Shown piece by piece: positions 17,996 to 53,115 of a stretch of 64,000 bases of DNA. Location: the NCBI GenBank assembly GCA_964016885.1, contig OZ024744.1, positions 98,084,001-98,148,000 of the forward strand. Direction: 5' to 3'. The first letter of the stretch is position 1, and each line of letters begins with the position of its first letter. Both the position numbers and the translations under genes were made by a program. This DNA comes from Eledone cirrhosa. Lineage: Eukaryota. The notes beneath the pieces were generated by a model. The model did no database searches and had not been told where the DNA came from. It saw only the letters and a program-made list of their open reading frames with translations.

Positions 17996-18519
17996 TTATA
18001 AGCAGAATGATGAGAGTACTTGCCATCTGATGAACATTCAAACAGCTATGAAACAGGCAATAGAAATCTCTTATTATTTTCTGTTTGAAGAGGATAACAG
18101 GATGTTTTCACATTTATTTACATTTTCACAGCAAGAATTATACTGTAGTTATACCTAGATTAAACTTATCTTAGATTTCAATTTTAAAAATATCCATCGT
18201 AACCACTTTTTTTGTTTTTATTCTGTAACTCCTGAGGGAATTGTAGGAGTGCTGTGTTGACATGCGGCGTTCCAAGGGCATTTTTTATACCTGACAGAGC
18301 CCCTCTCCATTCCAAGTCTTCCAGCAGATTTCTTCCAGAGAAGGATAAGGAGAGTGAAAAAATGGAAGTGGGGAAAGAGATATAGAGGAAGAATCGACCC
18401 CAGTACTAGACTGGTACTTTTTTTTTATATCAACCTTGAATGGATATCCAATTTTTATATATTCCATTTAAATATAAATAAAATACAGCACACAAGACAA
18501 AAATTTGTTTTTAGAAATA

Positions 18520-18529
18520 TTTATTTATT
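18520..18529 (-). terminator. Polyadenylation signal (overlapping AATAAA)
   Basis: The + strand reads tttatttatt; a U/GU-rich tract lies downstream on the minus strand. Confidence 0.65.
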
Positions 18530-18582
18530 TCATAAAAATGTTGTTGAAAGAATTTCAAACTTGTCAGCATTGGTTAATTTGT

Positions 18583-18655
18583 CCATTGAAAGCTATCATA
18601 GTCATGCCATTCCCAAGAAGGGTTTTTCCCATGTCTATTCATAAAGCAACAATCA
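18583..18655 (-). promoter_or_regulatory. SECIS element (form 2-like)
   Basis: Minus strand reads GCUUU AUGA AUAGACAUGGG AAAAA CCC UUCUU GGG AAUGG CAUGACUA UGAU AGC. It has the AUGA/GA quartet, 11 nt to the unpaired AA, helix UAG-A-CAUG/CAUG-A-CUA and an apical CCC/GGG minihelix. Confidence 0.85.
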
Positions 18656-18755
18656 GATAAACCAACACCAAGTTGTTTGCTGGAAAATAGAAAAGTGAAA
18701 GAAAACATTAATTGCATGAGAAATATTTCTAAAAATAAATTATCATTTTAATTAG

Positions 18756-19315
18756 ATGAGAGACTATGTAAAGTACATCTCTAAAATCATCAAGAAGGCC
18801 CCAGGTGTCTTAATATCACTTAGTAAGACCTTTGTCAGCTGCTCTCCAGTTATTTATTTAAAGCTATGGTGCAGCCACGCTTGGAATTTGCATCAACCAT
18901 ACTCTGAATGCTTTGCTTCCCTGGGCATGGATACATTGAAGCTCCGACGTCTGGCAACTGAGTTGGTAAACACCCACAAAATTATTATCCATCTTACCAA
19001 CAACAACCCTGAGCACCTTTTTGATTTCCATGTGTCTAACACCCATGGACATGCTTTTGTCAGCTGTCATGCAGTTGTTAGCTGTTGGGACACTGGATCC
19101 TTCAAAACTTCCATGCTGCCTGAAATTAGCCAACACTACACCTGATATTCCCCCTCCATACACACGCACACATGTGTGTGAATCATGACTCATACACTGT
19201 ACACTTTCCTGACATTTGTACATTATTCTATGTACTATTCATACACCTTTGATGAGTTGTAGTGCACCTGAGCATTGTACACAACAATTTTCATTATCAT
19301 TTAATTATCATTATC
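18756..19315 (+). mobile_element. CR1-like LINE 3' fragment
   Basis: LGMDTLKLRRLATELVNTHKII motif; same 3'UTR as 17540. Short 3' pieces also occur at 34480-34620 and 54825-55060 (minus). Confidence 0.75.
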
Positions 19316-19399
19316 ATTAAATGATAGAAAACAAAATTTTAATCTAGAAATGAGTAAACAAATGTTATTCTGAGTTCTGTTTCCACATCCAAAATTTAT

Positions 19400-20380
19400 T
19401 CTCTAATTCTTCCACACATTCAGCTACGAGGACCAGATCATTAGCATACAGAAGTTCCCATGGACAATCAGTCTTAAACTCCTCTATTATGGCCTGAAGA
19501 ACTATGATAAACAGAAGTGGACTAAGAACTGAACCCTAATGTACTCCTACCTGACCCTTGAATTCCTTGCTAAATTAATTACCTACTCTCATTTACTGAC
19601 AGCACCTCTGTACATGGCTTGCACTGCTCTTACAAGCCAATCTTCTACACCTAGATTCCTTAAGGACCACCAGATGACAGATTGTGATACTCTGTCAAAG
19701 GCTTTCTCCAGATCAACAAAAGCTAGATATAGAATCTTACTCTTAACTAAGAACTTCTCTTGTAGTTGTCTTACTAAAAAGAAGGAATCTGTGGTGTTCA
19801 TCCTTGCCATGAAACCAAACTGCATCTCATCTAATTTGATTCTTTCCCTAATTAGTTGTGCTAGAATTCTTTCTGTCACTTTCATAACCAGACCCGTCAG
19901 CTTTATTTCCCTGTAGTTGCTCTGTTATGATTGTAGTTGCTCTGCCAGTCATTGAGTATGACTCCGTCCTGTCCTGTAATACCTGATTGACTATGCGGGT
20001 TACTAACTGACTCCTACCTCTCCAGATGCGTTCAGCATCTCAGCAACTATCTCCGATGGTTCCGCAGCTTTACCATTTTTCATTTTCTTGATTGCTTTTT
20101 GACCCTATAATTGCCAGCTTCAATAGCTGGTCCCTCTGTTGGGTCAGTTGGGGGGTACTCTCCCATTCATTCTCTACATTCAATAACCTCTCATAACAAC
20201 CTTTTCAGCCCTCTTTATTTAGAGCAGCAGGGGTGCTAAGTACACCAGTGTCATTGTGAAAACACACTTTTCTCCAACAACATCCTGATTTACACTGACA
20301 TACCACCTTGCAATGCAGAACACCTCACGTCTCAGATCTGTACAGTACAAGATATTAGCAAATATCCTTCATTCAGCCAA
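19400..20380 (-). mobile_element. RTE LINE reverse transcriptase fragment (pseudogenised)
   Basis: MQFGFM..FLVRQLQEK..AFVDLEKAFDRV. Confidence 0.85.
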
Positions 20381-20515
20381 TGATGGTAATGAAAATGATG
20401 ATGATGATGATCACTTTAAAACAAGTATTTTTTTTTTGTAGAACCAGTTTCAGGTATTTTGGTATCCAAAGGGTTAAGTTAATAAGGACTTACACTTCTT
20501 TTTCTCAAAAATAAT

Positions 20516-20593
20516 TTATTTCTTCAATGCAGCTTTAACTCCACTTAAAATGCGGTCATATTTTTCATCAGTGTTAACATAACCATCGCCATT
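20516..20593 (-). CDS. SELENOW: SelW coding exon 5 NGDGYVNTDEKYDRILSGVKAALKK* (exon continues as UTR to the donor at 20494)
   Basis: ttttcag|AATGGCGATGGTTAT...AAGAAATAA, then 22 nt of UTR and gtaagt. Confidence 0.92.
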   Translation of the reverse strand, partial: NGDGYVNTDEKYDRILSGVKAALKK

Positions 20594-21749
20594 CTGAAAA
20601 TATTCAACAACAAAAATATAAATTACTGTAAATACTCAAACATAAGACGCAGTAGAGGAAGACCACAAAAGACGTGGGCGGAGGTGGTGAGAACAGACTT
20701 CAGATCACCTGAAGCTCACGGAGGAGATGACGAAGGACTGTGACAAGTGGAGAGATGCTGTGCTGAATAGAACTCGTCCCACCCTTGCAAGCAGGGAATA
20801 GCGGATGTAAAATGATGATGATGATGATGATGAAGCCAACACAAATATGAAACTTAAGTACCTGTACATGTTACTGTTGTAACTAATTATACTTAACTCA
20901 GTCTATGGACTGAGTGCTCTAAACCCTTGGATATTTACACCAAGTTTGTACTACAGTATATATAAAACCTCAATCTTAACAAATATATTTTTATTTCATC
21001 TATAACCAATAACCAGCACTAATAAAGTCACCAAGGAAATATCTACTACATCTAGCAAGCAATCTGAGCAGCTCATAGATGCTGTTGTGGTGGTTGGTGG
21101 TGCCATTATAGATATATATCATCATCATTATTAATGGCAAGTAGAGGGTCGGACGCCATGCTTTGAAGCATAGAGTTACCTCCCTGTATGATCTGAGTTC
21201 AAATCCAGCCGAGGTTAACTTTGCCTTTCATCCTTACGGGGTCGATAAAATAAAGTACCAGTAATGCACTGGGGTAATTGCTGGCCTTGTGCCAAAAGTA
21301 GAAACAATTATTAATGGCAAATTGCAGTGGATTGCCAGTATCGGTAGAGGGTCGGGCACCATGCTTTGACGCATAGAGTTACGGCCCTTGCCCCTTGCCA
21401 TTCTGCGTTCAAATCCCCCCAAGGTTAACTTTACCTTTCATCCTTACGGGGTCGATAAAATAAAGTACCAGTAATACACTGGGTAATTTGCTGGCCTTGT
21501 GCCTAACGTAGAAACAATTATTAATGGCAAATTAGAGAAGCTTGTCATTTGTACTGTATATCTTCAATAACTGTTTCTACTTTAGGCACAAGGCCAGCAA
21601 TCACCCAGTACATTACTGGTACTTTATTTTATCGACCCCGTAAGGATGAAAGGCAAAGTCAACCTCGGCGGGATTTGAACTCAGATCGTAAAGGGACGTA
21701 ACTATGCTGGAAAGCATGGCGTCCGACCGTCTACCGATACTGCCAATCC

Positions 21750-22222
21750 AACCACGACCAACTACAACAACAACAGCACCACCAACACCACGACAGCCAC
21801 CACCAACAACAACACCACAACCACCAACACCACGACAGCCACCACCTACAACACCACAACCACCACCACCACAAACAACAGCACCAGATGGTGGTGTTGG
21901 TGGTTGTGGTGTTGTTGGTGGTGGTGGTTGTGGTGGTGTTGTTGGTGGTGGCTGTGGTGGTGTTGGTGGTGTTGGTGGTGCTGGTGGTGGTTGTGGTGTT
22001 GTTGTTGGTGGTGCTGTTGGTGGTTGTGGTGGTGGTTGTGTTGTTGTAGGTGGTGGCTGTGGTGGTGTTGGTGGTGCTGTTGGTGGTTGTGGTGTTGTTG
22101 TTGGTGGTGGTGGTGGGTTTGGTGGTGTTGGTGGTGCTGTTGGTGGTTGTGGTGTTGCAGGTGGTGGTGTTGGTGGTGCTGTTGGTGGTTGTGGTGGTGT
22201 TGTTGTAGTTGATCGTGGTTAT
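21750..22222. repeat. Back-to-back (CAC/CAA)n and (GGT/TGT)n low-complexity tracts forming the core of an inverted duplication
   Basis: Strand switch near 21888; the flanks are inverted copies of each other. Confidence 0.85.
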
Positions 22223-22763
22223 TGAAGATATACAGTACAAATGACAAGCTTCTCTAATTTGCCATTAACAATGATGATATATATATATGCATGTATGTAT
22301 GTATGTATGTATGTCTATGGTGGTGCTACAACAACAAAAGCTCTCAGTCCGCCATGTAGAGTGATCCTACTAGTAACTTGACAAAAAACCACCCAGCCCA
22401 TCCTGTTAGATAGTCAAGCTGGTATCATCATCATCGTCATCATCATCATTTTCCCTGCTTGCAAGGCTGGGACGGGAACTGATTCTGGCTTGATTTCTAC
22501 AGCTGGATGCCCTTCCTAACACCAACCTCATTTACAGTGAGTGCTGGGTGCTTTTTTGCCGTGGCACCTCCACGACCACTTTGCAGTGGAATGATATGGG
22601 CCCCAGTCCCTATCATCTCATTTCTACAGCTGAGTAAACTGGAGCAATGTGAAATAAAGTGTCTTGCTCAAGGAAACAACACATCACCCAGTCTGAGAAT
22701 TGAACTCACAACCTTTCGATTGCAAGGCCAATGCTCTAACCACTAAGCCATGTGCCTCCATTT

Positions 22764-22833
<70 letters not shown>

Positions 22834-23464
22834 CCATGGAGTGGGAAGACCCAGAAATACTTGGGATGAGGTGATAAAAGCTGACCTTGCACAACTGCAC
22901 CTCTGACGTTATGTAGTAATACAGGAGACCCACTTTCCCATGAGCACAGGTTGAAACATAAATATAGCATGCACCGCCTTTGCCTCTATCACCCCTTCCA
23001 TCCACCTCCCACGTCCTAACATTTTGCCCCTCACATATGCTCATATACCCATCTCTCTAATCCCCACACACTTCTCCCACCAAAGAACCCAGGCCCCACT
23101 GTAAAGAACACCCAGTCCACACTGTAAAGTGGTCATGTAGGCGTCACAACAAAAAGTACCCAGTCCACACTGTAAAGTGGTCGTGTAGGTGACATGGCAA
23201 AAAGTACCCAGTACTTACAGAAAATGTGGTTGGCGTTAGGAAGGGCACCCAGCTGTAGAAACGAAGCCAAAATCAGTTCTGTATGAGCAAAACATGGTTA
23301 CCTGACATTGCCCACAACAGGACAACTCATCTAACCCATGCTAGCGTGGAAAAATGGACACTAAACGGTGATGATGATAATGATGATGATGATATATATA
23401 TATCACAGTTAACTCCATTATATATCAGATATGAAATTTGAAGAAAAAAAATTCTAAAACATAC

Positions 23465-23542
23465 CTTTTTGGAATGAAGCATTTTACCACCAACTACGCT
23501 CACTTCAAGCCAACCAGTTTGACTTGGAGTAGCTTCACAACT
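23465..23542 (-). CDS. SELENOW: SelW coding exon 4 (78 nt) SCEATPSQTGWLEVSVVGGKMLHSKK
   Basis: ttttgcag|AGTTGT...AAAAAG|gtatgt; carries the Rdx-family TG.(F/L)EV motif; lies inside ORF 23327..23548. Confidence 0.93.
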
Positions 23543-23964
23543 CTGCAAAATAAATTTTATTTTTCATCATTATTTCATATATTGTGTTTTGTTTAGCTTC
23601 AGTAAATTAAACATTTTTTTGCTCAAAACAGAAATTATACAACACTGAACATGGCACACGCTGTCAATATGATAGGCATTAGGAAGGGCATCCAGCCGTA
23701 GAATACCAGCCAGAAACACTCCTATTTGTGCGAGACACGGTCACCCGACACAACTTGTCTCTAATTGGGACAAACCTGTCTAACCCATGCTACCGTGGAA
23801 GATAGACGTTAATCGATGATGATGATCATCATCATCATCATCACCATTTATAATGTGTGAAAGCAAAGGTTTAAAATTGTTGAAGGTGAACATAGCAAGC
23901 AAGGAAAGATAAATGTGATAATAGAAATATATACTCAAATATAAACTGACACAAATATAAGCAG

Positions 23965-24206
23965 CAGGGCCTATGAGCGGGGAAGCCCAAGAGCTAATGT
24001 GGTTTTATGAGCTGATGTGGTTTCATGTGGTACAGGATGTTAAAAGTTAATGTGGTTTCATATGGTACAGGACGTTAAGGTTCTGGAGCCCAAGAGCTAA
24101 AAAGGCCCCACAGCAACCATGCAACATCCGTTTTGAGAAAAATCTTGGCCTACTTCGGGCCCCAAAGGAGTCTTGCACTGCCTTACAAAATTTCTTTGAG
24201 GCCCTG
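23965..24206. mobile_element. hAT-like MITE
   Basis: CAGGGCC...GGCCCTG termini with a perfect 8-bp TSD ATAAGCAG; nested in a Tc/mariner-like element at ~23925-24730. Confidence 0.75.
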
Positions 24207-24655
24207 ATAAGCAGACTCCTACAATTTTATGTCTGAAAAAAGGGCAAAAACCCAAACCTTATTTACATAGAATATTAAGTTGGTGAAAATCATCAAAATA
24301 TTGACCCCGAATATAAGCGAACCCCCTCTTCTCCCATTGATTTTTTGTCATATATTCTTCGGCTTATAATTGACTATATCTGGTGATAATGTGGTTTCCT
24401 GTGGTACAGAATGTTAAGACTTAATGTGGTTTCGTGTGGTACAGGATGTTGCGGGTTAATGTGGTTTCATGTGATACAGGATGTTAATAGTTAAATATAA
24501 GCTGATACAAATATAAGCCAACCCCACTATTTTATATCTGAGAAATGGGCAAAAAACCCAAACCTTATTTACAAAGAATTTTAAGTTGGTGAAAATCATA
24601 AAATATTAACCCCGAATATAAGTTGTCACCTCACCCCCCTCTATTTCACCATCAA

Positions 24656-24687
<32 letters not shown>

Positions 24688-25279
24688 GGGGTCACATATT
24701 CCTCGGCTTATATTTAAGTATATACAGTAACTGAAAAGTTCAAGTAATATATGCAGAGGAAAATATAAAAACTAGTAAATACAATAGTTAGAGTTAGAGT
24801 TGTACTTAACAGGTCAAATTTAAACCTGCCATTACTGGCCACTTATACTAATGTTAAGGTATTGTTCTCAAAATAAATAACATCAAAATCTCATAGATTC
24901 GATATTATGTGAGATAAATACAATAGTATTTATAGAGTAATGTAAATGCTAAAGGGTTAAGTTTCAAATTCAAGCAGAAAAGTCATAGAATACTGGTAAA
25001 GAACGAAAAACTGCTAATAACTTCATAAAATACATGTCTACAATAACAGACGCAGTAAAAATATTCCTAGCGTTATGCAGTAATGCAGAAGACCTGCCTT
25101 CCCATGTGCAGGAGCTGAAGCATACATCTAGTATGCGGCACCTTCCCTTCCATCACACCTCCCATACACCACCCATATCATAACCCAACCCCCATTCTAA
25201 CACCCACACTTCTAGATCTACCTCCCCAACCCCAATGCATCTCCCCCACACAGGTCCCCAATTCACACAATAAAGTGGT

Positions 25280-25660
25280 CATTTTGGTGCCACGACAACG
25301 AGCACCCACTCCACACAGTAAAGTGGTCATATAGGTGTCATGACAAAAGGCACCCACCCCACACTGTAAAGTGGTGGTGTGGGTGTCATGACAAAAGACA
25401 CCCACCCCACACTGTAAAGTGGTGGTGTAGGTGTCATGACAAAAGGCACTCAGCCCACACTGTAAAGTGCTTGTGTAGGTGTTATGACAAAAGGCACCCA
25501 GCCCACACTGTAGAATGGTTGTGTAGGTATCACGATAAAAAGCACCCGATCTACACTGTAAAGTGGTTGTGTAGGTGTTATGACAAAAAGCACCCAGTCC
25601 ACACTGTAAAATGGTCATGTTGGTGACACAACAAAAGGCACCCAGCACACACTACAAATC
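25280..25660. repeat. 48-bp minisatellite in an RTE 3'UTR module
   Basis: Unit approx. aaaaagcacccagcccacactgtaaagtggtcgtgtaggtgtcacgac. Confidence 0.85.
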
Positions 25661-26203
25661 TAGTTGGCGTGAGGATAGGCATCCAGCCATAGAAACCAAG
25701 CCAGAAATAGTTCTGTATGAGCAAGACATGGTCACCTGACCTGACCTGCCTTGGCGATTTATAGCAGAGCAAATTATATGATTTTCACCATTTATGGAGA
25801 GAAAAATCTATCAGTGGGATAATGAAAATCTCAAAACATAACCAAAAATTCTTCATTGGAATACACAATTACACACACATAAACAATACATATTTACATA
25901 TACATGAATATATATGAATATAATTGTAGTTTTTGTGGTAGGTCCAGGTTACAGAGTCATTTCTGAAGAAGACAGTGATTGAACAGGGATTTCAAGACTA
26001 GAAATAGGTAGTAAGTTAACCACTACCATGCTAGTTGATACAATCTATATCCACCAATCAATCGACCCTCTGAAACGATTGTAAAACAATGAACTACCTA
26101 CCTCTAACTTTTGTCTTGTATTGTTCTATGGACAAACACACATTATATATATCTATATATATAAAATTCACAGGAATCAAAGCTATGTTCAAAGCATTTA
26201 TTA

Positions 26204-26248
26204 GCTTACAATTGTTTCATCCAAACCGAGGCTTGGAGTCTTCGGAGC
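26204..26248 (-). ncRNA. Minimal hammerhead (family B, opposite strand)
   Basis: Identical reverse-complement copy in the left arm of the 1.3 kb fold-back. Confidence 0.58.
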
Positions 26249-27386
26249 ATTTTTCAATGTTTGTATACATACATGACCTCCTTTCCAACGCAAGAGACAT
26301 ACAGATACATATGTATATATTGATGTACAGTGGGGTGACATATATATTATTTCTGAATGGCAATTTAAATTCAAAACTTAAAATCATATTAAAACAGAAT
26401 CAAAGCAAAATTAAAATACAACATCAATGCAAATTTAAAATACAATCGGCAGTTAACGTAGATAATGCAAGAGGATAGTTTGTTAGTCAGTTGTAGTAGT
26501 TATTGTATGCATTAGTTACACGTGGGGCATGCACGTGTGTCTTATTTATATATGATTATTGTGCGGCAGGGTGTTATATGTAATACAAGCACTCTTTAAG
26601 CGGTTAATCAAGGGTATTATGGAGGTTGTAGTGGTAAGGTATGTTTTGTGTTCTTTAATCCAATTTTATAGAGCAGGTTGCGAGGATTTACATTGTTTTA
26701 TTATCCGGATAATAAAACGATGTAAATCCTCGCAACAGAAACAACCTGCTCTATAAAATTGGATTAAAGAACACTGAGCCGCAACAAGCTATAATAATTT
26801 AACTTAATACATCAAACATCCAATACGGAATCATCGTTAATTATGTGAAGGACATATAAACTATATATTACGTTTCCTGAATGTGAAAATGGTGGTGTAT
26901 ACAAAAACCATAACATTATTTTACTTCTCATTTATACTATTCTTCGGCGCACAAGCTCCATTATCATATACAAAAAATACCTTACCACTACAACCTCCAT
27001 AATACTCTTGATTAACCGCTTAAAGAGTGCTTGTATTACATATAACACCCTGCCGTACAATAATCATATATAAATAAGACACACGTGCATGCCCCGCGTG
27101 TAACTAATGCATACAATAACTACTACAACTGACTAACAAACTATCCTCTTGCATTATCTACGTACACTGCCGATGTTGTATTTTAATTTTAATTTTGCTT
27201 TGATTCTGTTTTAATGTGATTTTAATTTTTGAATTTAAATTGCCATTCAGAAATATATATCACCCCACTGTACAGTGGGGTGACATATAATATATGTCAC
27301 CCCACTGTACATCAATATATACATATGTATCTGTATGTCTCTTGTGTTGGAAAGGAGGTCATGTATGTATATAAACATTGAAAAAT

Positions 27387-27431
27387 GCTCCGAAGACTCC
27401 AAGCCTCGGTTTGGATGAAACAATTGTAAGC
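27387..27431 (+). ncRNA. Minimal hammerhead with CCGAAGA core variant (family B)
   Basis: GCT CCGAAGA C TCCAAGC CTCG GTTTGGA T GAAA CAATTG TA AGC; stem III is the perfect palindrome ACAATTGT. Confidence 0.6.
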
Positions 27432-27677
27432 TAATAAATGGTTTGAACAGAACTTTGATTCCTGTGAATTCTATATAACTGCTCTGTAGAACAACTGATG
27501 TTATTACATTGAGCTATTTATCTTACTGGTAATAAGGTAGTAATAAATTACTGTCTTTCACTGTTTAGGGTTTAAAATATATATAACTATAAAAAGTTTT
27601 AGTATATACATAACCATAAATAGTATCCTTAATACTATATTTATATATATATATATATATATATATACATGAATATA

Positions 27678-27893
27678 TTAACCCTTTAGCATTTAAACTG
27701 GCCATATCCGGCTAGAATTCTCTCACCTCTTTCTGTTCAAACCGGCCATAACCAGCCACTTATATTCGTATTAAGGTATTGTTCTTAAAATACATGATAT
27801 CAAAATCTCATGGCTCCGATATTATGAGAGATAAAGTCTTTACAGTGAAAATACAATAGTAAATATAGAGTAATGTAAATGCTAAAGGATTAA
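27678..27893. mobile_element. piggyBac-like MITE (other copies: 15448-15962 with two SINEs inside, partial 24800-24960 and 54515-54590)
   Basis: TTAA CCCTTTAGCATTTA ... TAAATGCTAAAGGA TTAA. Confidence 0.7.
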
Positions 27894-27961
27894 AACATAT
27901 CAACAAAACACACAAGTAGAAAAATAAAATAAAATACAATAAAAAATATCAAAATACTCAC

Positions 27962-28015
27962 AAACTCAAGCATGTCAGGAAAATCCATTTCCAACAAGCG
28001 CTTTAGTTCTCGATA
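27962..28015 (-). CDS. SELENOW: SelW coding exon 3 (54 nt) YRELKRLLEMDFPDMLEF
   Basis: aaaatag|TATCGAGAA...CTTGAGTTT|gtgagt, phase 0/0; resembles the SelW L..(D/E)FP..L segment. Confidence 0.9.
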
Positions 28016-28179
28016 CTATTTTATTGAGAAGAAATAAAATACATAGAAATTATTATTTATAATTATATCTATTTCAAAACATTTCAAATCAAAAATTTTG
28101 CAAACAAATGTAAAAACAAAATAATTAATAATTTTAGCAAATTCCTCAAAATTATTCATTGATTAATTAAAATAGGGTG

Positions 28180-28700
28180 TACTATTTTTTCCAGCCTGTG
28201 ATGTTCAAGACATTTGAGGGAGCTGGGCCACTGACAAAGAAGTTTTTGTCATTGTTAGCAGCTTGTCTTACCAAGGTGTCGAGTGATGCCCAGAGGGTGC
28301 CTGGTTCTTTCAACACCTTAGCCTCGCCATCATCATCATCGCCATCATCATCATCATCATCATTTTACACCCGCTTTTCCCTGCTTGCAAGGGTGGGACA
28401 GGTCCTATTCAGCACAGCATCTCTCCATTCATCACGGTCCTTCGTCATCTCCTCGGTGAGTTTCGGCGATCTGAGGTCTGCTCTCACCACCTCCGCCCAT
28501 GGTTTCCGTGGTCTTCCTCTACTGCATCTTCCCTCTACTGGCATTTCTTGGCACTTCTTTACCCAGCAGTCATCCTCCATGCATATCAGATGTCCATACC
28601 ATCTCAGCCTTCTCTCCCACACACTAGTAGTGCTGCGAGCGTGTTGGCTTGCCTCAAAAATTTCCGATGACCCCTTGTGATGTGGTGTGTGGCCAATTGA
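28180..28700 (+). mobile_element. CRE-like 3' fragment interrupted by a minus-strand RTE 3' end (28330-28625)
   Basis: FFQPVMFKTFEGAGPLT resembles the 10246 ORF; the inserted piece encodes RRLRWYGH..GRPRKPW..DRDEWR. Confidence 0.65.
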
Positions 28701-30029
28701 CGCACTTAGTGTTGAATTGATGGGCTTTTTTCTCTCACTTTGATTATATATTTTTGTGTATTATATTTATAAGGTTCCTAGCATTAATTAATTGATTATA
28801 TGTATGTACTTGTATTTAATATTATATATATAGACAACAATAAATAAATAAATAAAATAGAATAAGAAAACATTACAAAAATACAATGGAAGGAAACATA
28901 GAAACATCACTGATGATATCACAGTTGTGTGACGAAAGAACTCTGAGACACTATATTTATAACTGTTGGTCAACATTAATTGATAAACATTAATTGCCAG
29001 CTGAACTAATTATAGAAATACAAAAAAATATACCAAAGCGAAAACCAAACCAAACCAAACCAAACCAAACAGTGAGTGTGTTTTACTGTATTTTTCTGGT
29101 AATATTATATCAACATTAACCTCCCTAAATATGACAACATCTGTTTCAACTCATGATTTCATATCAAAAACCTTACAAAACAAATATATTATCATTTCTT
29201 ATATGATTTTAAAATAAAACTTTTATTATAAATAAAGCCATTATAAATTAAAGCAATAGAAATGCCGATATACCACTAGTGTATTGTTTTATGCAATGCT
29301 ATTAGGTTTGATATATTGCAATGTTATAGGAGAAAATAAACTTAATTTTAAAAAATACTTGGTATTTTAAAATGTGCCTATTGAAGGTACATGGCTTAGT
29401 GGTTAGAGAATTGGAATCACAATCATGAGGCAGCGAGTTTGATTCCTGGACCGTTCTTGAGCAAGACACTTTATTTCACATTGCTCCTTCTTTCTACTAG
29501 GAGTTGCATCTGGTAGATAGTATTAGCAATTGGAAAGATCAATGGAAACATTGTTTTTTGGTCTGATTTGACGAGCTCCACTTCCATTCGGTAAGCGAGT
29601 GAGGTCTTAGATCTTGTTGATTGTTAAAAATAAATAAATAAATAAATAAATAGTGAGTGCTGAATATTGAACCAAGAGTAAAATTAATGAAATCAATATA
29701 CAGGATTAATCAATATTCATTATTTTGAAATTTCATCAATTTCAATTTGAAATGAATTAAATTGATAATTAGGTCAAGCTAACATATTTTTAAAGCAGAA
29801 ATTAGATTTTAAAAAATCTCAAGAGACGGAGAGTGAAAAAAAGATTAACTGGGAAGAGTTCAGAAATATATATATATTCAAAATTTATCAGAATGGTCAG
29901 TCTGATGTCGTTTGTATGTGTGTGTGTATGTGTGTGTGTGTCTATGTATATATATGAATGTATGTACATATGTATTTATGCATGTATGTGTGTATGTATA
30001 TAGTTATGATATATGTTTGTATATATGTA

Positions 30030-33000
30030 TATATGAGATACAAGGACAGCATCAAGAACAACCTCAAAGAGCTGACATTTGATAAAGACAACTGGGAGGA
30101 GATAGCTTTAAATAGGGCTGAGTGGAGAAAGTACATAAAGGGCAGTTGCAAAACTTTTGAGGAATGTCGTCTAGAACATAAACAACTGAAGTGTCAGCTC
30201 CGGAAGGGCTGTGGACACAGTCTAGATGAAGTCATCAGTAGCTGGACATGTAATTTCTACCAGTGTGTACTCCTCTCAAAGGCTGGCTATGTTAATCACC
30301 TGAAGTCATCAGTAGTCAGACATGTAATTTCTACCAGTGTGTACTCCTCTCAAAGGCTGGCTATGTTAATCACCTGGAGTCATCAGTAGCTGGACATGTA
30401 ATTTCTACCAGTGTGTACTCCTCTCAAAGGCTGGCTATGTTAATCACCTGGAGTCATCAGTAGTAGGACATGTAATTTCTACCAGTGTGTACCCCTCTCA
30501 ATGGCTGGTTATGTTAATCACCTGGAGTCATCAGTAGTAGGACATGTAATTTCTACCAGTGTGTACTCCTCTCAAAGGCTGGCTATGTTAATCACCTGGA
30601 GTCATCAGTAGTAGGACATGTAATTTCTACCAGTGTGTACCCCTCTCAATGGCTGGTTATGTTAATCACCTGAAGTCATCAATAGCTGGACATGTAATTT
30701 CTACCAGTGTGTACTCCTCTCAAAGGCTGGTTATGTTAATCACCTGGAGTCATCAATAGCTGGACAGGTAATTTCTACCAGTGTGTACTCCTCTCAAAGG
30801 CTGGCTATGTTAATCACCTGAAGTCATCAGTAGTCAGACATGTAATTTCTACCAGTGTGTACTCCTCTCAATGGCTGGCTATGTTAATCACCTGAAGTCA
30901 TCAGTAGCTGGACATGTAATTTCTACCAGTGTGTACTCCTCTCAAAGGCTGGCTATGTTAATCAGCTGGAGTCATCAGTAGCTGGACATGTAATTTCTAC
31001 CAGTGTGTACTCCTCTCAAAGGCTGGTTATGTTAATCACCTGAAGTCATCAGTAGCTGGACATGTAATTTCTACCAGTGTGTACTCCTCTCAATGGCTGG
31101 TTATGTTAATCACCTGAAGTCATCAGTAGCTGGACATGTAATTTCTACCAGTGTGTACTCCTCTCAATGGCTGGCTATGTTAATCACCTGAAGTCATCAG
31201 TAGTCAGACATGTAATTTCTACCAGTGTGTACTCCTCTCAAAGGCTGGCTATGTTAATCACCTGGAGTCATCAGTAGTTGGACATGTAATTTCTACCAGT
31301 ATGTACTCCTCTCAATGGCTGGTTATGTTAATCAGCTGGAGTCATCAGTAGTCAGACATGTAATTTCTACCAGTGTGTACTCCTCTCAAAGGCTGGTTAT
31401 GTTAATCACCTGGAGTCATCAGTAGTAGGACATGTAATTTCTACCAGTGTGTACCCCTCTCAAAGGCTGGCTATGTTAATCACCTGAAGTCATCAGTAGT
31501 CAGACATGTAATTTCTACCAGTGTGTACTCCTCTCAAAGGCTGGTTATGTTAATCACCTGAAGTCATCAGTAGTCAGACATGTAATTTCTACCAGTGTGT
31601 ACTCCTCTCAAAGGCTGGTTATGTTAATCACCTGAAGTCATCAGTAGTCAGACATGTAATTTCTACCAGTGTGTACTCCTCTCAAAGGCTGGTTATGTTA
31701 ATCACCTGAAGTCATCAGTAGTCAGACATGTAATTTCTACCAGTGTGTACTCCTCTCAAAGGCTGGTTATGTTAATCACCTGAAGTCATCAGTAGTCAGA
31801 CATGTAATTTCTACCAGTGTGTACCCCTCTCAAAGGCTGGCTATGTTAATCACCTGAAGTCATCAGTAGTCAGACATGTAATTTCTACCAGTGTGTACTC
31901 CTCTCAAAGGCTGGTTATGTTAATCACCTGAAGTCATCAGTAGTCAGACATGTAATTTCTACCAGTGTGTACTCCTCTCAAAGGCTGGTTATGTTAATCA
32001 CCTGAAGTCATCAGTAGTCAGACATGTAATTTCTACCAGTGTGTACTCCTCTCAAAGGCTGGTTATGTTAATCACCTGAAGTCATCAGTAGTCAGACATG
32101 TAATTTCTACCAGTGTGTACTCCTCTCAAAGGCTGGTTATGTTAATCACCTGGAGTCATCAGTAGTAGGACATGTTATTTCTACCAGTGTGTACTCCTCT
32201 CAAAGGCTGGTTATGTTAATCACCTGGAGTCATCAGTAGCTGGACATGTAATTTCTACCAGTGTGTACTCCTCTCAAAGGCTGGCTATGTTAATCACCAG
32301 AAGTCATCAGTAGCTGGACATGTAATTTCTACCAGTGTGTACTCCTCTCAAAGGCTGGCTATGTTAATCACCAGAAGTCATCAGTAGTCAGACATGTAAT
32401 TTCTACCAGTGTGTACTCCTCTCAAAGGCTGGTTATGTTAATCACCTGAAGTCATCAGTAGCTGGACATGTAATTTCTACCAGTGTGTACTCCTCTCAAA
32501 GGCTGGCTATGTTAATCACCTGGAGTCATCAGTAGCTGGACATGTAATTTCTACCAGTGTGTACTCCTCTCAAAGGCTGGCTATGTTAATCACCTGGAGT
32601 CATCAGTAGTTGGACATGTAATTTCTACCAGTGTGTACTCCTCTCAAAGGCTGGTTATGTTAATCACCTGGAGTCATCAATAGTTGGACATGTAATTTCT
32701 ACCAGTGTGTACTCCTCTCAAAGGCTGGCTATGTTAATCACCTGAAGTCATCAGTAGCTGGACATGTAATTTCTACCAGTGTGTACTCCTCTCAAAGGCT
32801 GGTTATGTTAATCACCAGAAGTCATCAGTAGCTGGACATGTAATTTCTACCAGTGTGTACTCCTCTCAAAGGCTGGCTATGTTAATCACCAGAAGTCATC
32901 AGTAGTCAGACATGTAATTTCTACCAGTGTGTACTCCTCTCAAAGGCTGGCTATGTTAATCACCTGAAGTCATCAGTAGCTGGACATGTAATTTCTACCA

Positions 33001-33725
33001 GTGTGTACTCCTCTCAAAGTCTGGCTATGTTAATCACCTGAAGTCATCAGTAGCTGGACATGTAATTTCTACCAGTGTGTACTCCTCTCAAAGGCTGGTT
33101 ATGTTAATCACCTGGAGTCATCAGTAGCTGGACATGTAATTTCTACCAGTGTGTACTCCTCTCAAAGGCTGGTTATGTTAATCACCTGGAGTCATCAATA
33201 GTTGGACATGTAATTTCTACCAGTGTGTACTCCTCTCAAAGGCTGGTTATGTTAATCACCTGAAGTCATCAGTAGCTGGACATGTAATTTCTACCAGTGT
33301 GTACCCCTCTCAAAGGCTGGTTATGTTAATCACCTGAAGTCATCAGTAGCTGGACATGTTATTTCTACCAGTGTGTACTCCTCTCAATGGCTGGCTATGT
33401 TAATCACCTGGAGTCACATGAAAGGATAACTACCCACAACACCACTCAACAAAGACCTGGTGAAACAACGTGTGTGATATGCTACAAAGTGTGTAGAACT
33501 AATTCTAGTTCCAGACTAAAAAGACACATGGAGGTACATAGAGATTGTGTCCTACAAGGTGACACTACCAGTCCTGTGGAAAGCACAACTCTATTCTGTC
33601 ACCTGTGTTGTAAACCATGCAGCAGGTCTACAGCTGGCCTACAAAGTTATGGACAGGGATAAGATGACAATGAAGAATCAGTAAGAGACGGCAATCGTCT
33701 GTAAAGATGCTGCAAGCATCATATA
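30030..33725 (+). mobile_element. RTE/BovB-like LINE 3' end with C2H2-like fingers, split by the 74-bp satellite
   Basis: RYKDSIKNNLK..WEEIALNRAEWR before the array; AGYVNHLESH..CVICYKVC..LKRHMEVH..CHLCCKPC after it. Confidence 0.75.
30227..33417. repeat. 74-bp tandem satellite, ~43 copies, derived from a LINE zinc-finger segment
   Basis: Unit tgaagtcatcagtagctggacatgtaatttctaccagtgtgtactcctctcaaaggctggctatgttaatcacc. Confidence 0.95.
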
Positions 33726-35029
33726 TGTATTTATGTATAGGTCTCTCTCTTTCTCTCTATGAAATCGGATGTGTCCAGACATGGAAAGGGATGGATTTCA
33801 CTAGGTTTAAAATACCCAAGACACACCTATATATGTCAGGACAACATTCCCATAACTCCACTAAATCAGTACTGAAGTGAAGCCACTGATTTCCCAGGTA
33901 AGCCAGGGACTTGTGTCTCGCTTGTGTATGGTCTGACTTAATATATATATAGTGTGGTCTCTGTAGCACAGTGTTTGTTCTAAAGAGAAAGCTTGCTCAC
34001 CATATAACACCTGGATTATGAGGCATTATATTTGCTGTTCATGGGTAAAAAAAGGTGTAATGTTGTAGGTGTGTTTATTGTAGGTATGTTTATTTTGATA
34101 TAAGTAGAGAATTCTTAATTTTTGTCAAAGACATGACAACCGCTTTAATGCTGGTGATTTACACGATAAAATGAACCCAGTACACTCAGTAAGGTGGTTG
34201 GTGATAGAGAATGTATCCAGCAGTAGAAAACATACCAAAAAAAGGCTTGGAAGGACTCTTCTACTGTGTTAAAGAAATGGCAACCTCCCTAGTGTGGTGA
34301 CATGATAAAATACACCCAATACACTGTGTCAAGTGGTTTGTGATAGGAAGGGTATCCAACCATAGAAAACATGCCAAATAGAGGACTCTTCCATTAAGTC
34401 CAAGATATGACAACCTTCCTAGTAGAGTGCCATATTAAAATGCACCCGAGGGTCCTTGTGGAGTGCAGGAAAAAAAAAAAAATAATAATGAAATTATTGT
34501 GTACAGTACTCAGGTGCACTACAACTCATCAAAGGTGCATGTATAGTACATAGAATAATGTACAAATGTCAGGAAAATGAACAGCTTACGAGTCATGAAA
34601 TACATGTGCATGTGTATGGAGGGAGGGGGGGGGGGTATTGAATGCGTGTAAAAGTCCAAGACATGACAACCTTCCTAGTATGGTGCTATATTAAAATGCA
34701 CCCAAGGGTGCCTGTGGAGTGCAGGAACATATGTAAATGAGATGGACACTTGCAGCCTATCTAAGAGGTTGGTGTCAGGTGATTAAGTATAGTACTCTCT
34801 TCATCTGTAACAACCTATCCAACCCTTGCTAGCAGCAACGTTAAATGGTGATGATTAATGTGCTACATCATCATTATCATCATCGTTTAACATCTATTTT
34901 CCACTCTAGCATGGGTTAGATATGTTGTCCCATTAGAAGCATGTTGAGTAAGGTGACCATGACTTGCTTAACAGAACTGATTTTGGCTAGGTTTCTACGG
35001 CTGGATGCCCTTCCTAACACCAACCACAT

Positions 35030-35490
35030 TTACAGTGTGGACTGGGTGCTTTTTATTGTGACACCTACACAACCACTTCACAGTGTGGACTGGAGAGCTT
35101 TTGTCATGTCACCTACCAAACCACATTTACAGTGTGGGCTGGGCACTTTTTGTTGTGACACCTACACTATCACTTTACAGTATGGGTTGGGTGCTTTTTT
35201 GTTGACACCAACATAACCATGTTTACAGTGTGTGCTAGGTGCTTTATGTTGTAACACTGCCGTGACTGACCACTTTACAATGTGGGCTGGGTACTTTTTG
35301 TTGTGACACTGACACGACCACTGTATAGTGTAGGCTGGGTACTTTTTGTTGTAACCTACACGACCACTTTACAGTGTGGGTTGGGTACTTTTTGTTGTGC
35401 ACAAACCACTTTACAGTGTGGGCTGGGTGTTTTTTGTTGTAACCTACACAAACCACTTTACAGTGTGGCTGGGTAGTATTTGTTGTACAC
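35030..35490. repeat. 48-bp minisatellite in an RTE 3'UTR module (minus orientation)
   Basis: Same unit, diverged. Confidence 0.8.
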
Positions 35491-35974
35491 ATTAAATACA
35501 TTTGGTTTCATATTTGGGTTTTGTACTGTCATAAATTCTAGAGCCAATAGTACAAGTATGAGCAATTTATTGTAATATCTTCTACGATTAAAACAAAACA
35601 GATATGATTCTATCGCATTACAAAATGTGTATTATGTCTGATTATAGATGAAAAAAAATATTTAGGTCAGCGTGACCTAATAGTTAAAATTAAACATACG
35701 CTATATGGCAACTTACCTAGTGTGGTGACATGATAAAATACACCCAATATACTGTCAAGTGGTTTGTGATAGGAAGGGTATCCAGCCATAGAAAACATGA
35801 CAAACAAAGAATAGAGAGGACTTTTCAGTTAAGTCCAAGACATATATATATTATCATCATTATCATCATCACCCGAGGTTAACTTTGCCTTTCATCCTTA
35901 CGGGGTCGATAAAATAAAGTACCAGTAATTCACTAGAATCATTGCTGGCCTTGTGCCAAAAGTAGAAACAATTA

Positions 35975-38690
35975 TCATCATCACCTTTTAACATCCATTT
36001 TCCATTTTAGCATGGGTTAGACAAGTTGTCCCGTTGTGAGACAAGTCAGATCAGAAGACAGTGTCTTCCTCATACAAACCTCTGGTTTGATTTCTATAGC
36101 TGATTGCCCTTCCTAGTGCCAACCACATTTACAGCATGGACTGGGTACTTTTTCACCGTGTCAACAGCATGACCATCTTACAGGAAGGACCAGGTGCTTT
36201 TTGTCATTTCACCAGCACAACCATCCTAGAGGGAGGGCTGCGTGCTTTTTGTTGTGTCACCAACACGACCACTTTATGGGGTGGACTGGGTGCTTTTTGT
36301 TGTATCATCAACACAACCACGTTACAGAGTGAGCTGGGTGCTTTTTATCATATCATCAACACGATCACTTTATGGGGTGGACTGGGTGCTTTTTGTTGTG
36401 TCATCAACATAAGCACGTTACAGCATGGACTGAGTGTTTATTTATCATGACATCACTTCTTACAGGGTGGACTAAGAGTGTTTAGCTATTTCAACAGCAT
36501 TGTGGGAGAGAGTGTCCAGCTTTCCATGCCTGGGTGTATTGGTTAAACAAAAGGTGTATCAAATGTGAAAGGGGGGGGGGGGTATGTGTATGTAGTATGG
36601 GGATTGGAAAAGTATGTCTAAGGCGGGGTACTTAGCTGGTAAAAGGTGAAGTGTTAAGACATGGGAGGTTTATGGATGGAGAAAATACTAATACCCTCAA
36701 TATGTCTGCTTTATCTCATGCACATGAGATGGTAGGTCTTCCATAGTACTGTATATCGCCAGAGATCTCGGTACTGTGTCATTGTCTTTGAGAGGTTGAA
36801 TTGTGCAAGATCAGTTTTTATCACTTCATCCCAACATTTCTTAGGTCTTCTATAGTTTCCATTAACTTTGAGAGTCCAGCACCTTTTTATACGGCTCTTT
36901 TCCTCCATATGCAACACATGTCCACAATCTCTTCTACACACAGCATCTGTCCCCTCTTATGCCCAGTTTCTCTCTCTCTCTCTCTTAGTTATTTACGCTT
37001 TGCTGTTCATGTATTCTACTATTACACATCCATGAGAGTATGCAAGTTTCATGTCTTTCCAATCTTCGTAGGTCCTCTGCATACAGTACCTAGCTCCCCT
37101 GTTCATACACATGCATCATAAAATGTGCCCTTCATTTTGAGGTGAAAACGTTTTGTGACTAGCAGTAATAGTAACTCCCTGAACTTTCTCCATCCAGTTC
37201 TTACTCTGGCTACTGTACTTTCATAATACCCACCGCCACTGCTAATTTGGTTAACCAGGTAACAGAGGCTGTCAACTTCTGTCAACTATTTCTATGGAAC
37301 CTCAAAGAATTCAATAGAACTAGCTTCCTGTGAGCACTTGCTGCTTACTGCTCCTGTGCATCAACCACACCTGAGATCCCACTACATCTCTTGTGTACCC
37401 AGAGTTTACATTTGGGAGGGGACATAGGATGACTCCTTTTCTGCACACAGGCCATTTCATTGGAGGGATTAGGTCCCTGTTTTAATTTCTACTTACTAGG
37501 ATTTTAGTCTTTGTCAAGTTTGATTCCAAGTCATGCTTCCAGACCACAAATTTTTTTTTTTTTCGTAATTCTGTCATAGATTCAGCTAAAAAGCATGGGC
37601 AGCCTGTTTGAAACTTTTGTTATAGCCTAGAGGATGATAATAAACAGGAGAGAGCTAAAAATGGAGCCCTGATGGACCCCTACTTACATACTAAACTTCA
37701 CTATAATCATTATTAATTTTAACCTTGCTGACTGCTCCTCTGTACATGGCTACCCCTAGTTTCTTAAGCACCCACCAGATTGTGGAATAGAGGACTGTCA
37801 AATGTTTTCTCCAGGTCAACATGTGTCAAGTAGAGGGGTTTACCTTTTGCTAGGTACTTCTGCAGTTGCTTTATAAGGAAGAGAGCATCCGTGGTACTTT
37901 TATCTGGCACAAATCTGAACTACAATTCATCTAAGTTAATTTGATCTTTAATCAGTTGTAGAATTAATCTTTCTGTAAGTTTCATGACTTAGTTCATCAA
38001 TATGATGCCTTGGTAATTTCCTCTAGTTTAGTGCATCACCTTTGCCTTCGTGATATTGATGCTGCTAAACCAATCATTAGGTATAGTACTGTTTTGTATT
38101 ACTTGGGTGGTTATGGTGTGGCCAACCAACCCAGATGCTTTCAGCATCACAGCAACTATTCCCAATGGCCCAGCTGCTTTGCCTGCCTTCATATCCTTAA
38201 TTGCCTTACATACTACACTGCTGCTGACTTGTACAGGTCTTCCATCTGTTGGGCCCACTTAGGGCAGACTATCTTCCTCCCGTGCATTCTCATCATTTAT
38301 CAGTCTTTCATAATGTCACTTCCATATTGGCTTCTTTTCAGCATCGGTGAGGACAAGGACACCATTGTCATCTTGCACACACCTCTCCCCACAACAACAT
38401 CACAATTTTCCCTGATACACCGCCTTGCGCTCCTGAACATCTCACGTTTCTGTTCCTCACATCACAAAACATGCATAAACCTTTTAATTTATCTTCTTCC
38501 CTCTTTGCAAAGTATACTTGTTGCTTAGCTTCTCTCTTTCCATGCTTATTTCTTGTTATTCCTGCCTTAATTGTTTCTATCCATCCTTCTATTCCACCAC
38601 CAACTCACTCTTCTACTCCCTGGGGCTCTGCTTCAGTCACAGGTCTTTTTTTTTTGTCACCTTCAGCAAATTATCTTTCAGGAACAGTGG
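35975..38690 (-). mobile_element. Long decayed RTE LINE (RT through 3'UTR minisatellite and tail)
   Basis: ORF remnants 38028-38258, 37103-37285 and 36711-36941 are collinear with the 40735-42272 and 14145 copies. Confidence 0.8.
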
Positions 38691-39815
38691 AAGTTCATCA
38701 TCATCATTATCATCATTATCATCATTATCATCATCATCATCGTTTAATAGATGTTAAACAATGATGATGATGATGTTGAACTACCACCGCCTCCTCTATA
38801 TTGTATGTCTCTATTTGTTCTTCCTTATTGTCGTAAGCACCAAACAAAATACCTCTAAATTTGTTACTGGCTGAGGGCACCTTCACATTCCTTCTCTTTC
38901 GTCTCCATGTTGCCCTCTGTCTCTCTCCAACTTCATCTAGCTCTAACCATGAAGTCGCAAACTTCTAGGTTATGTCGGGAGGTTCATTCATCACTAAAGA
39001 GGAACTTTGTGCTTACAACTGTCATTCTATATCATCTTCTGGTGCAGATAAAATCTATCTGACTGGCATGGCCACCTGATCTATAGGCGATCAGGTGGCG
39101 TGTCAGATTTTTTTGATATTTGCATTACATGCACTTGATAGGTTTGATGCTGAGTGCTGCACAGTTGCGAAGACCGAGATACTTGTCCTCTAAATGAAGC
39201 CTATGCAGCACATTCTACTTTTGAATGGAGTTTCACTGAAGCAGGTGGAGAGGTTAAAGTATATCGGGGATGTATTCAAATGTGATGGAAGGCATGAGGC
39301 TGAATTAAGTGCAAGAATTGCAGGAGCTGGTGCAGAGAGATCAAAGAGTCATTCCAAGTAGAGTTGCTATTTCTCTAAAAAATAAAAAATTTAAAAAAAA
39401 AAATAAAAAATTTAAAAAAAAAAATAAAAAAAAAAAAATATAAAAAAAAAAAAAAAAAAATCGCTGGACAGATTTTGTGGGTAAGACCAACTAGCCGGAG
39501 AACAAAGGGTAGACCTTGAGCAAGTTTGTTGGATAAGATACATGAGTTCAACTGGTCTCACTTGAGGATCCAGCCAAATCAATTGGAGACAGAGACTGTA
39601 AGAAGTATCTGAGGGCTCTGCCTCCACAAGACGACAACAAAAAAGAAAAAGAAGACAACAAAAAAGAAAAAGAAGACGAAAAGAAAAAGAAAAAGAAGGC
39701 GAAGAAGAAGAAGAAACCGACAAAGAAAATGAAGAAGACAACAATGACCCTAACAACTGTCAATTAATCACCTTAGAGAGTCAAATACAAGAATATATAC
39801 AAACGGATTTCTTAC

Positions 39816-39840
39816 CTTCCCCTCGTAACCTCACGCACCA
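39816..39840 (-). CDS. SELENOW: SelW coding exon 2 (25 nt) with in-frame TGA = Sec at 39831-39833
   Basis: Minus strand reads ttcttcaattttcag|T GGT GCG TGA GGT TAC GAG GGG AAG|gtaaga, giving (C)-G-A-U-G-Y-E-G-K, phase 2 to 0. Confidence 0.92.
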
Positions 39841-40734: not shown

Positions 40735-42272
40735 CATATATTTATTTATATCACATTCTCCTTCCTACCTGTTATGAGAGTAATGAAGGACAGATAGAGA
40801 CATTCAATATAGAAGAGCACTGGGAGTTCCTAAAAAATAACCTACTAAAGGCGACAGACGAGATTTGTGGTTGGAGCAAGACTACAGGGAGAAGGAGGGT
40901 GACTTGGTGGTGGAACAATAAGGTAGATGAAGCAATTAAGGCCAAGAGACAGGATTGGAAACAATGGAAGAACGGGGGAAGCAGGATACATTACATAGAG
41001 ACCAGGAGGGAAGCTAGGTGACAAGTATACTTAGCTAGGAGGGAAGCGGAGGATAAAAAAATTCAAGTATGTTTTGCAGCATGAGGACCAGAAACAGGAG
41101 GTGTTCAGGATTGCGAGGCAGTGTGTTAGAGAAAATTGCAATGTCCTTAGTGAGAAGTGTGTCCAGGATGATAAAGGTGCACTTGCCCTCATATGCTGAG
41201 AAGAAAGACGCGTCGAAGAGTCATTATGAAAGATTAGTGAATGAAGAGAATGCATGGGAGAAAGAGACCCTACCCCAAGTGGACTCCATAGAGGGCCCAG
41301 CAGTACAATTCAGCAGCTGTGTAGTAAGTAAGGCAATTAAGGATATGAAAACTGGGAAAGCAGCTGGTCCATCAGGAATAGTTGCTGAAATGCTGAAAGC
41401 ATCTGGGCTAGTAGGACACACCATAACCACAGGTATTGTAAACCAAGTAATACTAGATGGTGTCATACCAAATGATTGGCACAATAGCATCATTGTCAAT
41501 TACTATAAGGTTAAAGAAGATGAACTATATAGAGGAAACTATAGAGGTATAAAGCTGATGGACCAGGTCATGAAAGTAACGGAAAGAGTCATAGCACAGT
41601 TGATTAGGGACTGGGTAAAACTAGATGAGATGCAGTTTGGATTTTTGTACCAGGCAAAAGCACCACTGACACTTGTGAGACAGTTACAAGAAAAGTACCT
41701 AGCTAAAAACAAGCTGCTCTACCTGGCATTTGTTGATCTGAAGAAAGCTTTCGACAGAGTTCCCCATGATATAATCTGGTGGGCTCTTAGAAAACTAGGA
41801 GTAGATGAATGGCTTCTGAAGGCTGTACAAGCCATGTATAGGGGAGCAGTCAGCAAAGTTAGGGTTAACAATGACTATAGCGAGGAATTTAGTGTACAGG
41901 TCGGTGTCGACCATGGCTCTGTTCTTAGCCCAATCCTGTTTACTATCGTTTCGCAGGCTATAACAGAGGACTTTAAGGCTGGCTGCCCATAGGAACTTCT
42001 GTACACAGATGGTCTTACATTCCTAGCTGAATTTATGGCGGAACTAAAGAAGAAATTCCACACATGGAAGCAGGGATTAGAAAGAAATGGTCTCAAAGTC
42101 AACCTGACAAAGACTAAGGTCCTTTTAAGTAGACGAGAAAACAGAACTAAGATCCCCTCAGGGAAATGGTCTTGCTTAGTATGTAGGAAAGGTGTAGATA
42201 GGAACTCCATCCTCTGCCCCATATGCAAACAATGGGTACACAAGAGATGTAGTGGGATCGCAGGTAGTTTAG
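40735..42272 (+). mobile_element. RTE LINE reverse transcriptase fragment
   Basis: KAAGPSGIVAEMLK, NYRGIKLM, QFGF, AFVDLKKAFDRVP and GSVLSPILF motifs; stops and frameshifts; catalytic YADD decayed. Confidence 0.9.
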
Positions 42273-52766: not shown

Positions 52767-53115
52767 TGGAGGCACATGCTTAGTGGTTAGAGCATTGGAC
52801 TTGCAATCGAAAGGTTGTGAGTTCAATTCTCAGACCAGGTGATGTGTTGTTTCCTTGAGCAAGACACTTTATTTCACATTGCTCCAGTTTACTCAGCTGT
52901 AGAAATGAGATGATAGGGACTGGGGTCCCTATCATTCCACTGTAATGTGGTCGTGGAGGGTCCATGGCAAAAAAAAGCACCCAGCACTCACTGTAAATGA
53001 GGTTGGTGTTAGGAAGGGCATCCAGCTGTCGAAATCAAGCCAGAATTAGTTCCCGTCCCACCCTTGCAAGCAGGGAAAAGCGGACGTAAAAAGCGGACGT
53101 AAAATGATGATGATT
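52767..53115 (+). mobile_element. tRNA-derived SINE family 2 with CORE-like domain and RTE tail. Full copies: 13143-13482-, 22430-22760-, 50220-50551-. Head-only or variant copies: 3716-3837+, 5030-5143-, 29385-29487+, 57120-57365-
   Basis: A box (G)GCTTAGTGG, B box GAGTTCAATTC, CCTTGAGCAAGACACTT, and tail CGTCCCACCCTTGCAAGCAGGGAAAAGCGGACGTAAAATGATGA. Confidence 0.85.

Follow-up and report, generated by a model that had tools for sequence, protein, structure and literature searches.

Here we describe a stretch of 64,000 nucleotides from the genome of Eledone cirrhosa (contig OZ024744.1, positions 98,084,001 to 98,148,000; G000:C28:98084001-98148000), hereafter the window, which holds exons 2 to 6 of what is very probably a single-copy, spliced, six-exon gene of the SELENOW (SelW1) type, with an in-frame UGA codon predicted to be read as selenocysteine (Sec) through a selenocysteine insertion sequence (SECIS) that lies in exon 6. 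The gene is intact and transcribed. We directly observed its exons and splice sites in the window, three of its five splice junctions (in an RNA-like contig), its 3' end and a SECIS-shaped sequence, together with genes for tRNA-Sec and SepSecS elsewhere in the genome. Feature coordinates are collected in Table 1.

An earlier interpretation made from the DNA letters alone (the sequence-only reading) had proposed that four coding exons with canonical splice sites join in frame in this region. The five exon edges that it gave in the window are all exact and all canonical (AG/GT) on the minus strand. When the exons were joined by script, one of the three frames was open: its sole internal stop is the TGA in the context G-A-TGA-G-Y, and it ends at the TAA of exon 5. 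The proposal stands, with one correction to the length of the fourth in-window coding exon, for which 78 nt describes the coding part plus the stop codon, the full exon measuring 100 nt. Each of the four in-window coding exons is single copy within the 264 kb examined (at up to 20% mismatch), and exon 6 occurs once in a search of the genome. In all, the gene extends over about 54 kb; its five introns (33.0, 11.8, 4.4, 2.9 and 1.8 kb) are filled with repeats, and its 3' untranslated region (3'UTR) is about 198 nt long. Counting a putative exon 1 discussed below, the predicted product is 93 residues long, with a Cys at position 16 (Cys16) and the TGA as codon 19. We rejected the idea that the 25-nt exon 2 is a micro-exon in the regulated neural sense: there is no sign of skipping, and its loss would shift the reading frame.

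Transcription was assessed with contigs compared over window positions 18300-28200. The last exon is present in three runs of one study, none of which is on record as RNA, and we treated run X3 as RNA solely because its contig is spliced, the library type not being on record. Record 9 of X3, a contig of 437 nt at depth 605, leaves out exactly the stretches 18679-20494, 20593-23465 and 23542-27962, each with CT..AC ends. These are precisely the junctions 27962>23542, 23465>20593 and 20494>18679 for which the sequence-only reading had sought RNA evidence. No such joint appears in X1, a DNA-like run. The genome match of record 9 stops at 18504, 20 nt past the AATAAA signal, and five letters remain beyond it; on the opposite side of the contig, 24 further letters lie 5' of the 54-nt exon and fit the 25-nt exon 2 by length only. 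The junction between exons 2 and 3 (39816>28015) falls outside the compared stretch and is predicted. Contig depth is uninformative on the level of expression.

The family assignment draws on comparisons of single exons and of the joined protein. Searched alone against the PDB (177,635 sequences), exons 4 and 5 each returned a single match, in both cases mouse SelW (2npb), at residues 39-61 (E 0.021) and 63-85 (E 0.0056), and these matches follow the order of the gene. Exon 4 also matched TIGR02174 at 15.7 bits (E 0.014), below the cut-off of 34.2. Homologues were collected with a degenerate pattern placed at the edge of exons 4 and 5, which did not cover the CxxU motif, and Cys was allowed in the test of the Sec site. 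This pattern fetched 28 metagenome loci, which include two pairs of near-duplicates (L053/L059 and L051/L064). A profile was built from 15 intron-free full-length homologues, the 13 other loci being truncated or intron-bearing. The spliced 93-aa protein scored 127 bits on this profile, and no shuffle out of 1000 exceeded 11.7 bits; with only exons 1-3 the score was 41 bits. Pairwise identity between the window protein and each homologue ranges from 41 to 57%. The motif C16-x-x-U19 aligns in all 15 homologues, with Cys16 dependent on the putative exon 1, and the site aligned to the UGA is TGA in every one of them and Cys in none. This is in line with the proposal that the 25-nt exon carries a Sec UGA. 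Pfam Rdx (PF10262) was run on six of the 15 homologues and all six passed, at 48-59 bits against a cut-off of 22.6. Membership of the SelW/Rdx family, as the sequence-only reading had claimed, is thus borne out by the score of the joined peptide on a profile of Rdx homologues and by the PDB matches of exons 4 and 5 to mouse SelW only.

The closest relatives within this family can be separated further. SELENOW2/MIEN1 (Rdx12, C17orf37; PDB 2ljk) is also an Rdx protein with a CxxU/CxxC motif, but exons 4 and 5 do not match 2ljk. Furthermore, the 57%-identical homologue L053, the sole one compared with the PDB, matched 2npb at E 5.9e-29 and 2ljk at 0.0035, a preference for mouse SelW of about 26 orders of magnitude. 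Judging from these similarities, the gene is SelW1-type, with SELENOW2/MIEN1 and SELENOT both less close to it than SelW. Likeness to 2npb also suggests that the product adopts a thioredoxin-like fold.

Searches of large protein collections added little. Word-index searches with exon 4 and its flanks gave ten candidates among longer proteins, none at E of 10 or below, and nothing near the expected length, which is a weak negative. A search of 1.84 billion representative proteins returned 15 matches, 12 of which carry the exon-4 block; the other three are long repetitive proteins and were rejected as noise. Eleven of these 12 are bounded by Q...V in protein letters, as if this exon had been translated together with its genomic flanks, a kind of match that the flanks of the query favour. 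The Pfam Rdx cut-off was passed by two of the 12 matches scanned (of 15). An Atlas search gave three matches under 0.9, two of them with Rdx on 14-15% of members, which we take as a lead only.

Exon 1 probably lies beyond the window. We added 200 kb of sequence past its end and scanned 224 kb upstream in all. A motif scan gave 11 candidates, only one of which combines an ATG with a GTAAGT donor (L005:8909-8863). We also joined all phase-2 GT/GC donors with at least six open codons to exons 2-3 and scored them on the homologue profile. The same candidate ranked first of 18,462 donors, at 40.8 bits against 35.1 for the runner-up and a median of 20.8, and there is no other ATG within the 200 nt before it. 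This suggests that it is the missing exon 1, and the junctions of exon 1 to 2 and of exon 2 to 3 follow as predictions. The candidate ends in TG and is followed by gtaagt, in agreement with the anticipated long first intron interrupting the Cys codon, and it places intron 1 at 33,022 nt, above the 24 kb that had been put forward as a minimum. The splicing contig, the ranking of exon 1 and the layout described in PMC3316567 also agree on six exons with a non-coding last exon, as earlier suggested.

It is conceivable, though very unlikely, that the gene is a selenoprotein W gene whose true first exon is a different one, farther off or one of several, in which case the N-terminus and the length of intron 1 would change. 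The upstream scan was limited to 224 kb and the RNA contig ends within the length of exon 2. Moreover, no X3 contig was found at the candidate when X3, X1 and X2 were compared there, but such a zero can be false and we count it neither way. Against this possibility, the candidate leads the 18,462 donors by 5.7 bits, the runners-up being weak donors located within a tandem repeat. It also offers a start codon, an open frame and a GTAAGT donor, without a competing ATG in the 200 nt upstream. Candidates inside the window at 61.2-61.7 kb were rejected; they lie within a 51-bp tandem array and have GTTGT donors. By eye, a near-perfect inverted repeat (L005 ~9550-9920, arms of ~180 nt, (TA)n flanks) is seen upstream of exon 1, about 650 nt from its start codon.

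Exon 6 contains a sequence with the anatomy of a type II SECIS element. It presents AUGAA at 18642, an apical run of A from 18627, a CCC/GGG mini-helix and UGAU at 18598. The UGAA/UGAU core is followed by a helix of seven standard pairs and one A-A mismatch, the run of A lies 10 nt past the core, and the 39-nt insert folds to -7.5 kcal/mol with CCC/GGG as a third helix. PMC3753652 defines a SECIS by a UGAN/KGAW core, helix II, apical adenines and a distance of more than ~51-111 nt from the UGA, and the exon 6 element conforms to this UGAN/KGAW definition. Its AUGA is located 37 nt from the start of exon 6; in the mRNA, the stop codon precedes it by 59 nt and the UGA by 287 nt. A custom SECIS scanner recovered the site and found a match in three of 1000 shuffles of exon 6, a proportion that is not a clean P value since the energy cut-off was set knowing the target.

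The genome also encodes machinery for Sec insertion. Two tRNA-Sec genes were found, both scoring 77.7 bits and bearing the anticodon TCA, and SepSecS is represented by eight exon matches in order. One SepSecS exon shares 96% identity with its Octopus bimaculoides counterpart, ahead of 89% for the second-best match, which points to an octopus as the likely source. The two tRNA-Sec loci (G000:C23:15059770-15059855, L025, and 15118228-15118313, L026) lie on opposite strands, 58 kb apart. Taken together, the sequence features make it highly likely that Sec is inserted at the UGA.

Several results weigh against our interpretation. Exon 3 alone had no match in the PDB, no single exon matched Pfam Rdx, the sole Pfam match of exon 3 being S_100 (E 0.02), and a genome-wide Pfam Rdx search of the unspliced DNA gave four matches that do not include this locus. 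At gathering level, Rfam reported no SECIS within the window: the element scores 21.5 bits on SECIS_1 (RF00031; E 0.54) against a gathering score of 35 and has the best E-value of six weak matches in 2.3 kb. Its folding energy is no better than that of shuffled sequences (z -0.80; 39 of 200 as good), and the custom scan gave eight matches on both strands of the 64-kb window. Finally, splicing was seen in a single contig of the single run X3, with its unrecorded library type, and the junctions of exon 1 to 2 and of exon 2 to 3, the latter outside the compared stretch, were not seen in RNA.

Some of these points would also be expected if the TGA were a plain stop and the locus either a transcribed pseudogene or the source of only a 60-aa Sec-free product that starts at the in-frame ATG of exon 3. 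Indeed, a naive reading of the transcript with TGA as a stop yields two open reading frames (ORFs) of 18 and 60 aa, the SECIS falls under the Rfam cut-off and the 5' junctions are unseen. However, sub-threshold scores are common: only one of 20 homologue loci passes the gathering cut-off of RF00031 and two others score 23-24 bits, which indicates that in the present case members and non-members are not told apart by this threshold. In addition, the TGA stands at the same site in all 15 homologues, there is no further stop or frameshift, the core and the position of the SECIS are kept, and exons 1-3 retain their 41-bit similarity to the profile. We therefore consider a plain stop extremely improbable.

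Adenosine-to-inosine (A-to-I) editing offers another way past the codon. Coleoid cephalopods recode many mRNAs by such editing, and only this context speaks for a conversion of UGA to UGG (Trp) in some transcripts, whose read-through would then not, or not only, involve Sec. But the SECIS and the Sec machinery already account for the codon, the UGA is retained in distant homologues, ADAR disfavours adenosines that have a G on their 5' side, and a Trp at this position would abolish the redox centre. There is no edited letter in the data, in which the RNA sequence of exon 2 does not appear. We regard this explanation as hardly credible. A related idea, to which we likewise give next to no weight, is that the Sec codon is itself an A-to-I target forming a tissue-tuned switch from active selenoprotein W to a version with Trp and back; if true, the Trp form would lack the redox centre, need no selenium and escape decay.

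Under Sec decoding, the established eukaryotic mechanism would apply: SBP2 and eEFSec would assemble on the SECIS and bring Sec-tRNA to the UGA, which lies 287 nt upstream; Sec would then be inserted at this codon and translation would continue to the TAA. The product would be a small thioredoxin-like protein of 93 aa with the Cys16/Sec19 pair as its redox centre, as in mammalian SELENOW. At low selenium, the UGA may instead act as a stop. It is located 247 nt ahead of the last junction, whereas the TAA is only 22 nt ahead of it; under the 50-nt rule for nonsense-mediated decay, these distances would expose the transcript to decay when the UGA terminates translation. On such general rules, selenium-dependent decay is likely to act as a control of this gene. 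According to PMC13134290, SELENOW is an antioxidant oxidoreductase that depends on glutathione.

The organization of the gene resembles that of its mammalian counterparts. As presented in PMC3316567, mammalian SelW has six exons, with coding sequence in exons 1-5 and an exon 1 of nine residues ending just before CxxU; on average 38 nt separate the start of exon 6 from the SECIS core. The Eledone gene, with its predicted exon 1, shares the six exons, the coding part in exons 1-5 and the SECIS in a non-coding exon 6. As in mammalian SELENOW (SelW1, SEPW1), its CxxU is near the N-terminus, exon 1 ends just before it, and exons 4 and 5 are collinear with the matching stretches of 2npb. The SECIS core starts 37 nt into exon 6 here and ~38 nt in mammals. 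The comparison was one of layout. In contrast, exon 1 would encode 15 residues here instead of ~9, exon 4 is one residue longer than the corresponding mouse stretch, the 3'UTR is shorter (~198 nt vs a mammalian mean of 358), and the ~54-kb span with repeat-filled introns is a further difference. Of 11 metagenome loci examined, six carry an intron that interrupts the Cys codon at an identical place and phase, and one of the 11 has a GT directly after the stretch matching exon 2. The layout shared with mammals, which extends to where the SECIS sits in exon 6, and the intron in the Cys codon of these six loci suggest that the gene structure is likely very old.

Table 1. Coordinates of the gene and of other features (window positions unless a contig is given).
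Feature	Position	Strand	Description
Probable exon 1	G000:C28:98156909-98156863 (L005:8909-8863)	minus	47 nt coding, ATG to split Cys codon TG, then gtaagt
Intron 1, in-window part	39841-64000	minus	phase 2; 33,022 nt in total
Exon 2	39840-39816	minus	25 nt, ttttcag acceptor, gtaaga donor; last base of Cys codon and Sec codon
In-frame TGA	39833-39831	minus	codon 19 (product of 93 residues); predicted Sec in CxxU motif
Exon 3	28015-27962	minus	54 nt, ag acceptor, gtgagt donor; spliced to exon 4 in RNA-like contig
Exon 4	23542-23465	minus	78 nt, tttgcag acceptor, gtatgt donor; spliced in RNA-like contig
Exon 5	20593-20494	minus	100 nt, ttttcag acceptor, gtaagt donor; 75 coding + TAA + 22 nt of 3'UTR
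Stop codon TAA	20518-20516	minus	in exon 5
Exon 6	18679-18504	minus	176 nt, non-coding, ttccag acceptor; letters 257-432 of 437-nt contig record 9
Type II SECIS	18650-18585	minus	full-length match to Rfam SECIS_1, below gathering score; type II anatomy
Poly(A) signal AATAAA	18529-18524	minus	20 nt ahead of match end of RNA contig
Rdx locus 1	G000:C2:74110938-74111045 (L001)		SECIS-like hairpin downstream at 74116509 (L038:6509)
Rdx locus 2	G000:C2:166737490-166737624 (L002)		SECIS-like hairpin downstream at 166745764 (L044:5764)
Tandem array	1696-3266		61 bp x 26, homogeneous
Tandem array	6088-9260		36 bp x 88, homogeneous; open in 4 frames over 1000 codons
Tandem array	30227-33416		74 bp x 43, homogeneous; within intron 2

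SelW genes have already been predicted in a mollusc and an annelid. In PMC3473315, SelW is reported in all six invertebrates studied, with three genes in the mollusc Lottia gigantea, two in Capitella teleta and two in Nematostella. The Eledone gene belongs to the same family and is an ordinary member of a well-known group. We found no paper on a cephalopod SelW in the literature searched, a weak negative given that most subscription papers lie outside that search. The value of our result is mostly one of annotation, namely a complete gene model of an octopus selenoprotein W with a predicted exon 1, a SECIS and a 3' end; it opens no new mechanism. PMC12822975 notes that families with an N-terminal Sec, W included, are subject to 'downstream' misannotation and are commonly misannotated in vertebrate databases. 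It is plausible that standard gene callers would truncate this gene as well, a judgement based on the naive ORFs and on PMC12822975.

Other Rdx-family sequences were detected in the genome. Two further loci, 92 Mb apart, share an exon that by eye resembles SELENOW2/MIEN1 (Table 1). Their 3' regions align at a mean column identity of 79%, and the second scores 26.7 bits on SECIS_1 (E 0.0057). From these similarities, they are likely a duplicated pair of selenoprotein genes. A weak Rdx match was also found at G000:C9:40647575-40647655 (L003), whose translation we take to resemble a SELENOT exon. Just below the tRNA-Sec cut-off, arrays of tRNA-like sequences occur at G000:C1:441187689-441227599 (spacing of ~1.7 kb) and C10:51299043-51322323 (3-4 kb); these are probably other long-arm tRNAs in tandem repeats.

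Finally, repeats occur in the introns and elsewhere in the window. Intron 1 contains a LINE-like reverse-transcriptase fragment at 41057-41992 on the plus strand (PF00078, E 2.8e-18) as well as tandem arrays, and similar reverse-transcriptase remains are visible by eye in intron 5 (~19400-20150, minus strand). Two tRNA-like heads score just above the Rfam tRNA cut-off, at 22689-22752 (minus strand), in highly repeated DNA, and at 52778-52833 (plus strand), and are likely short interspersed elements (SINEs).

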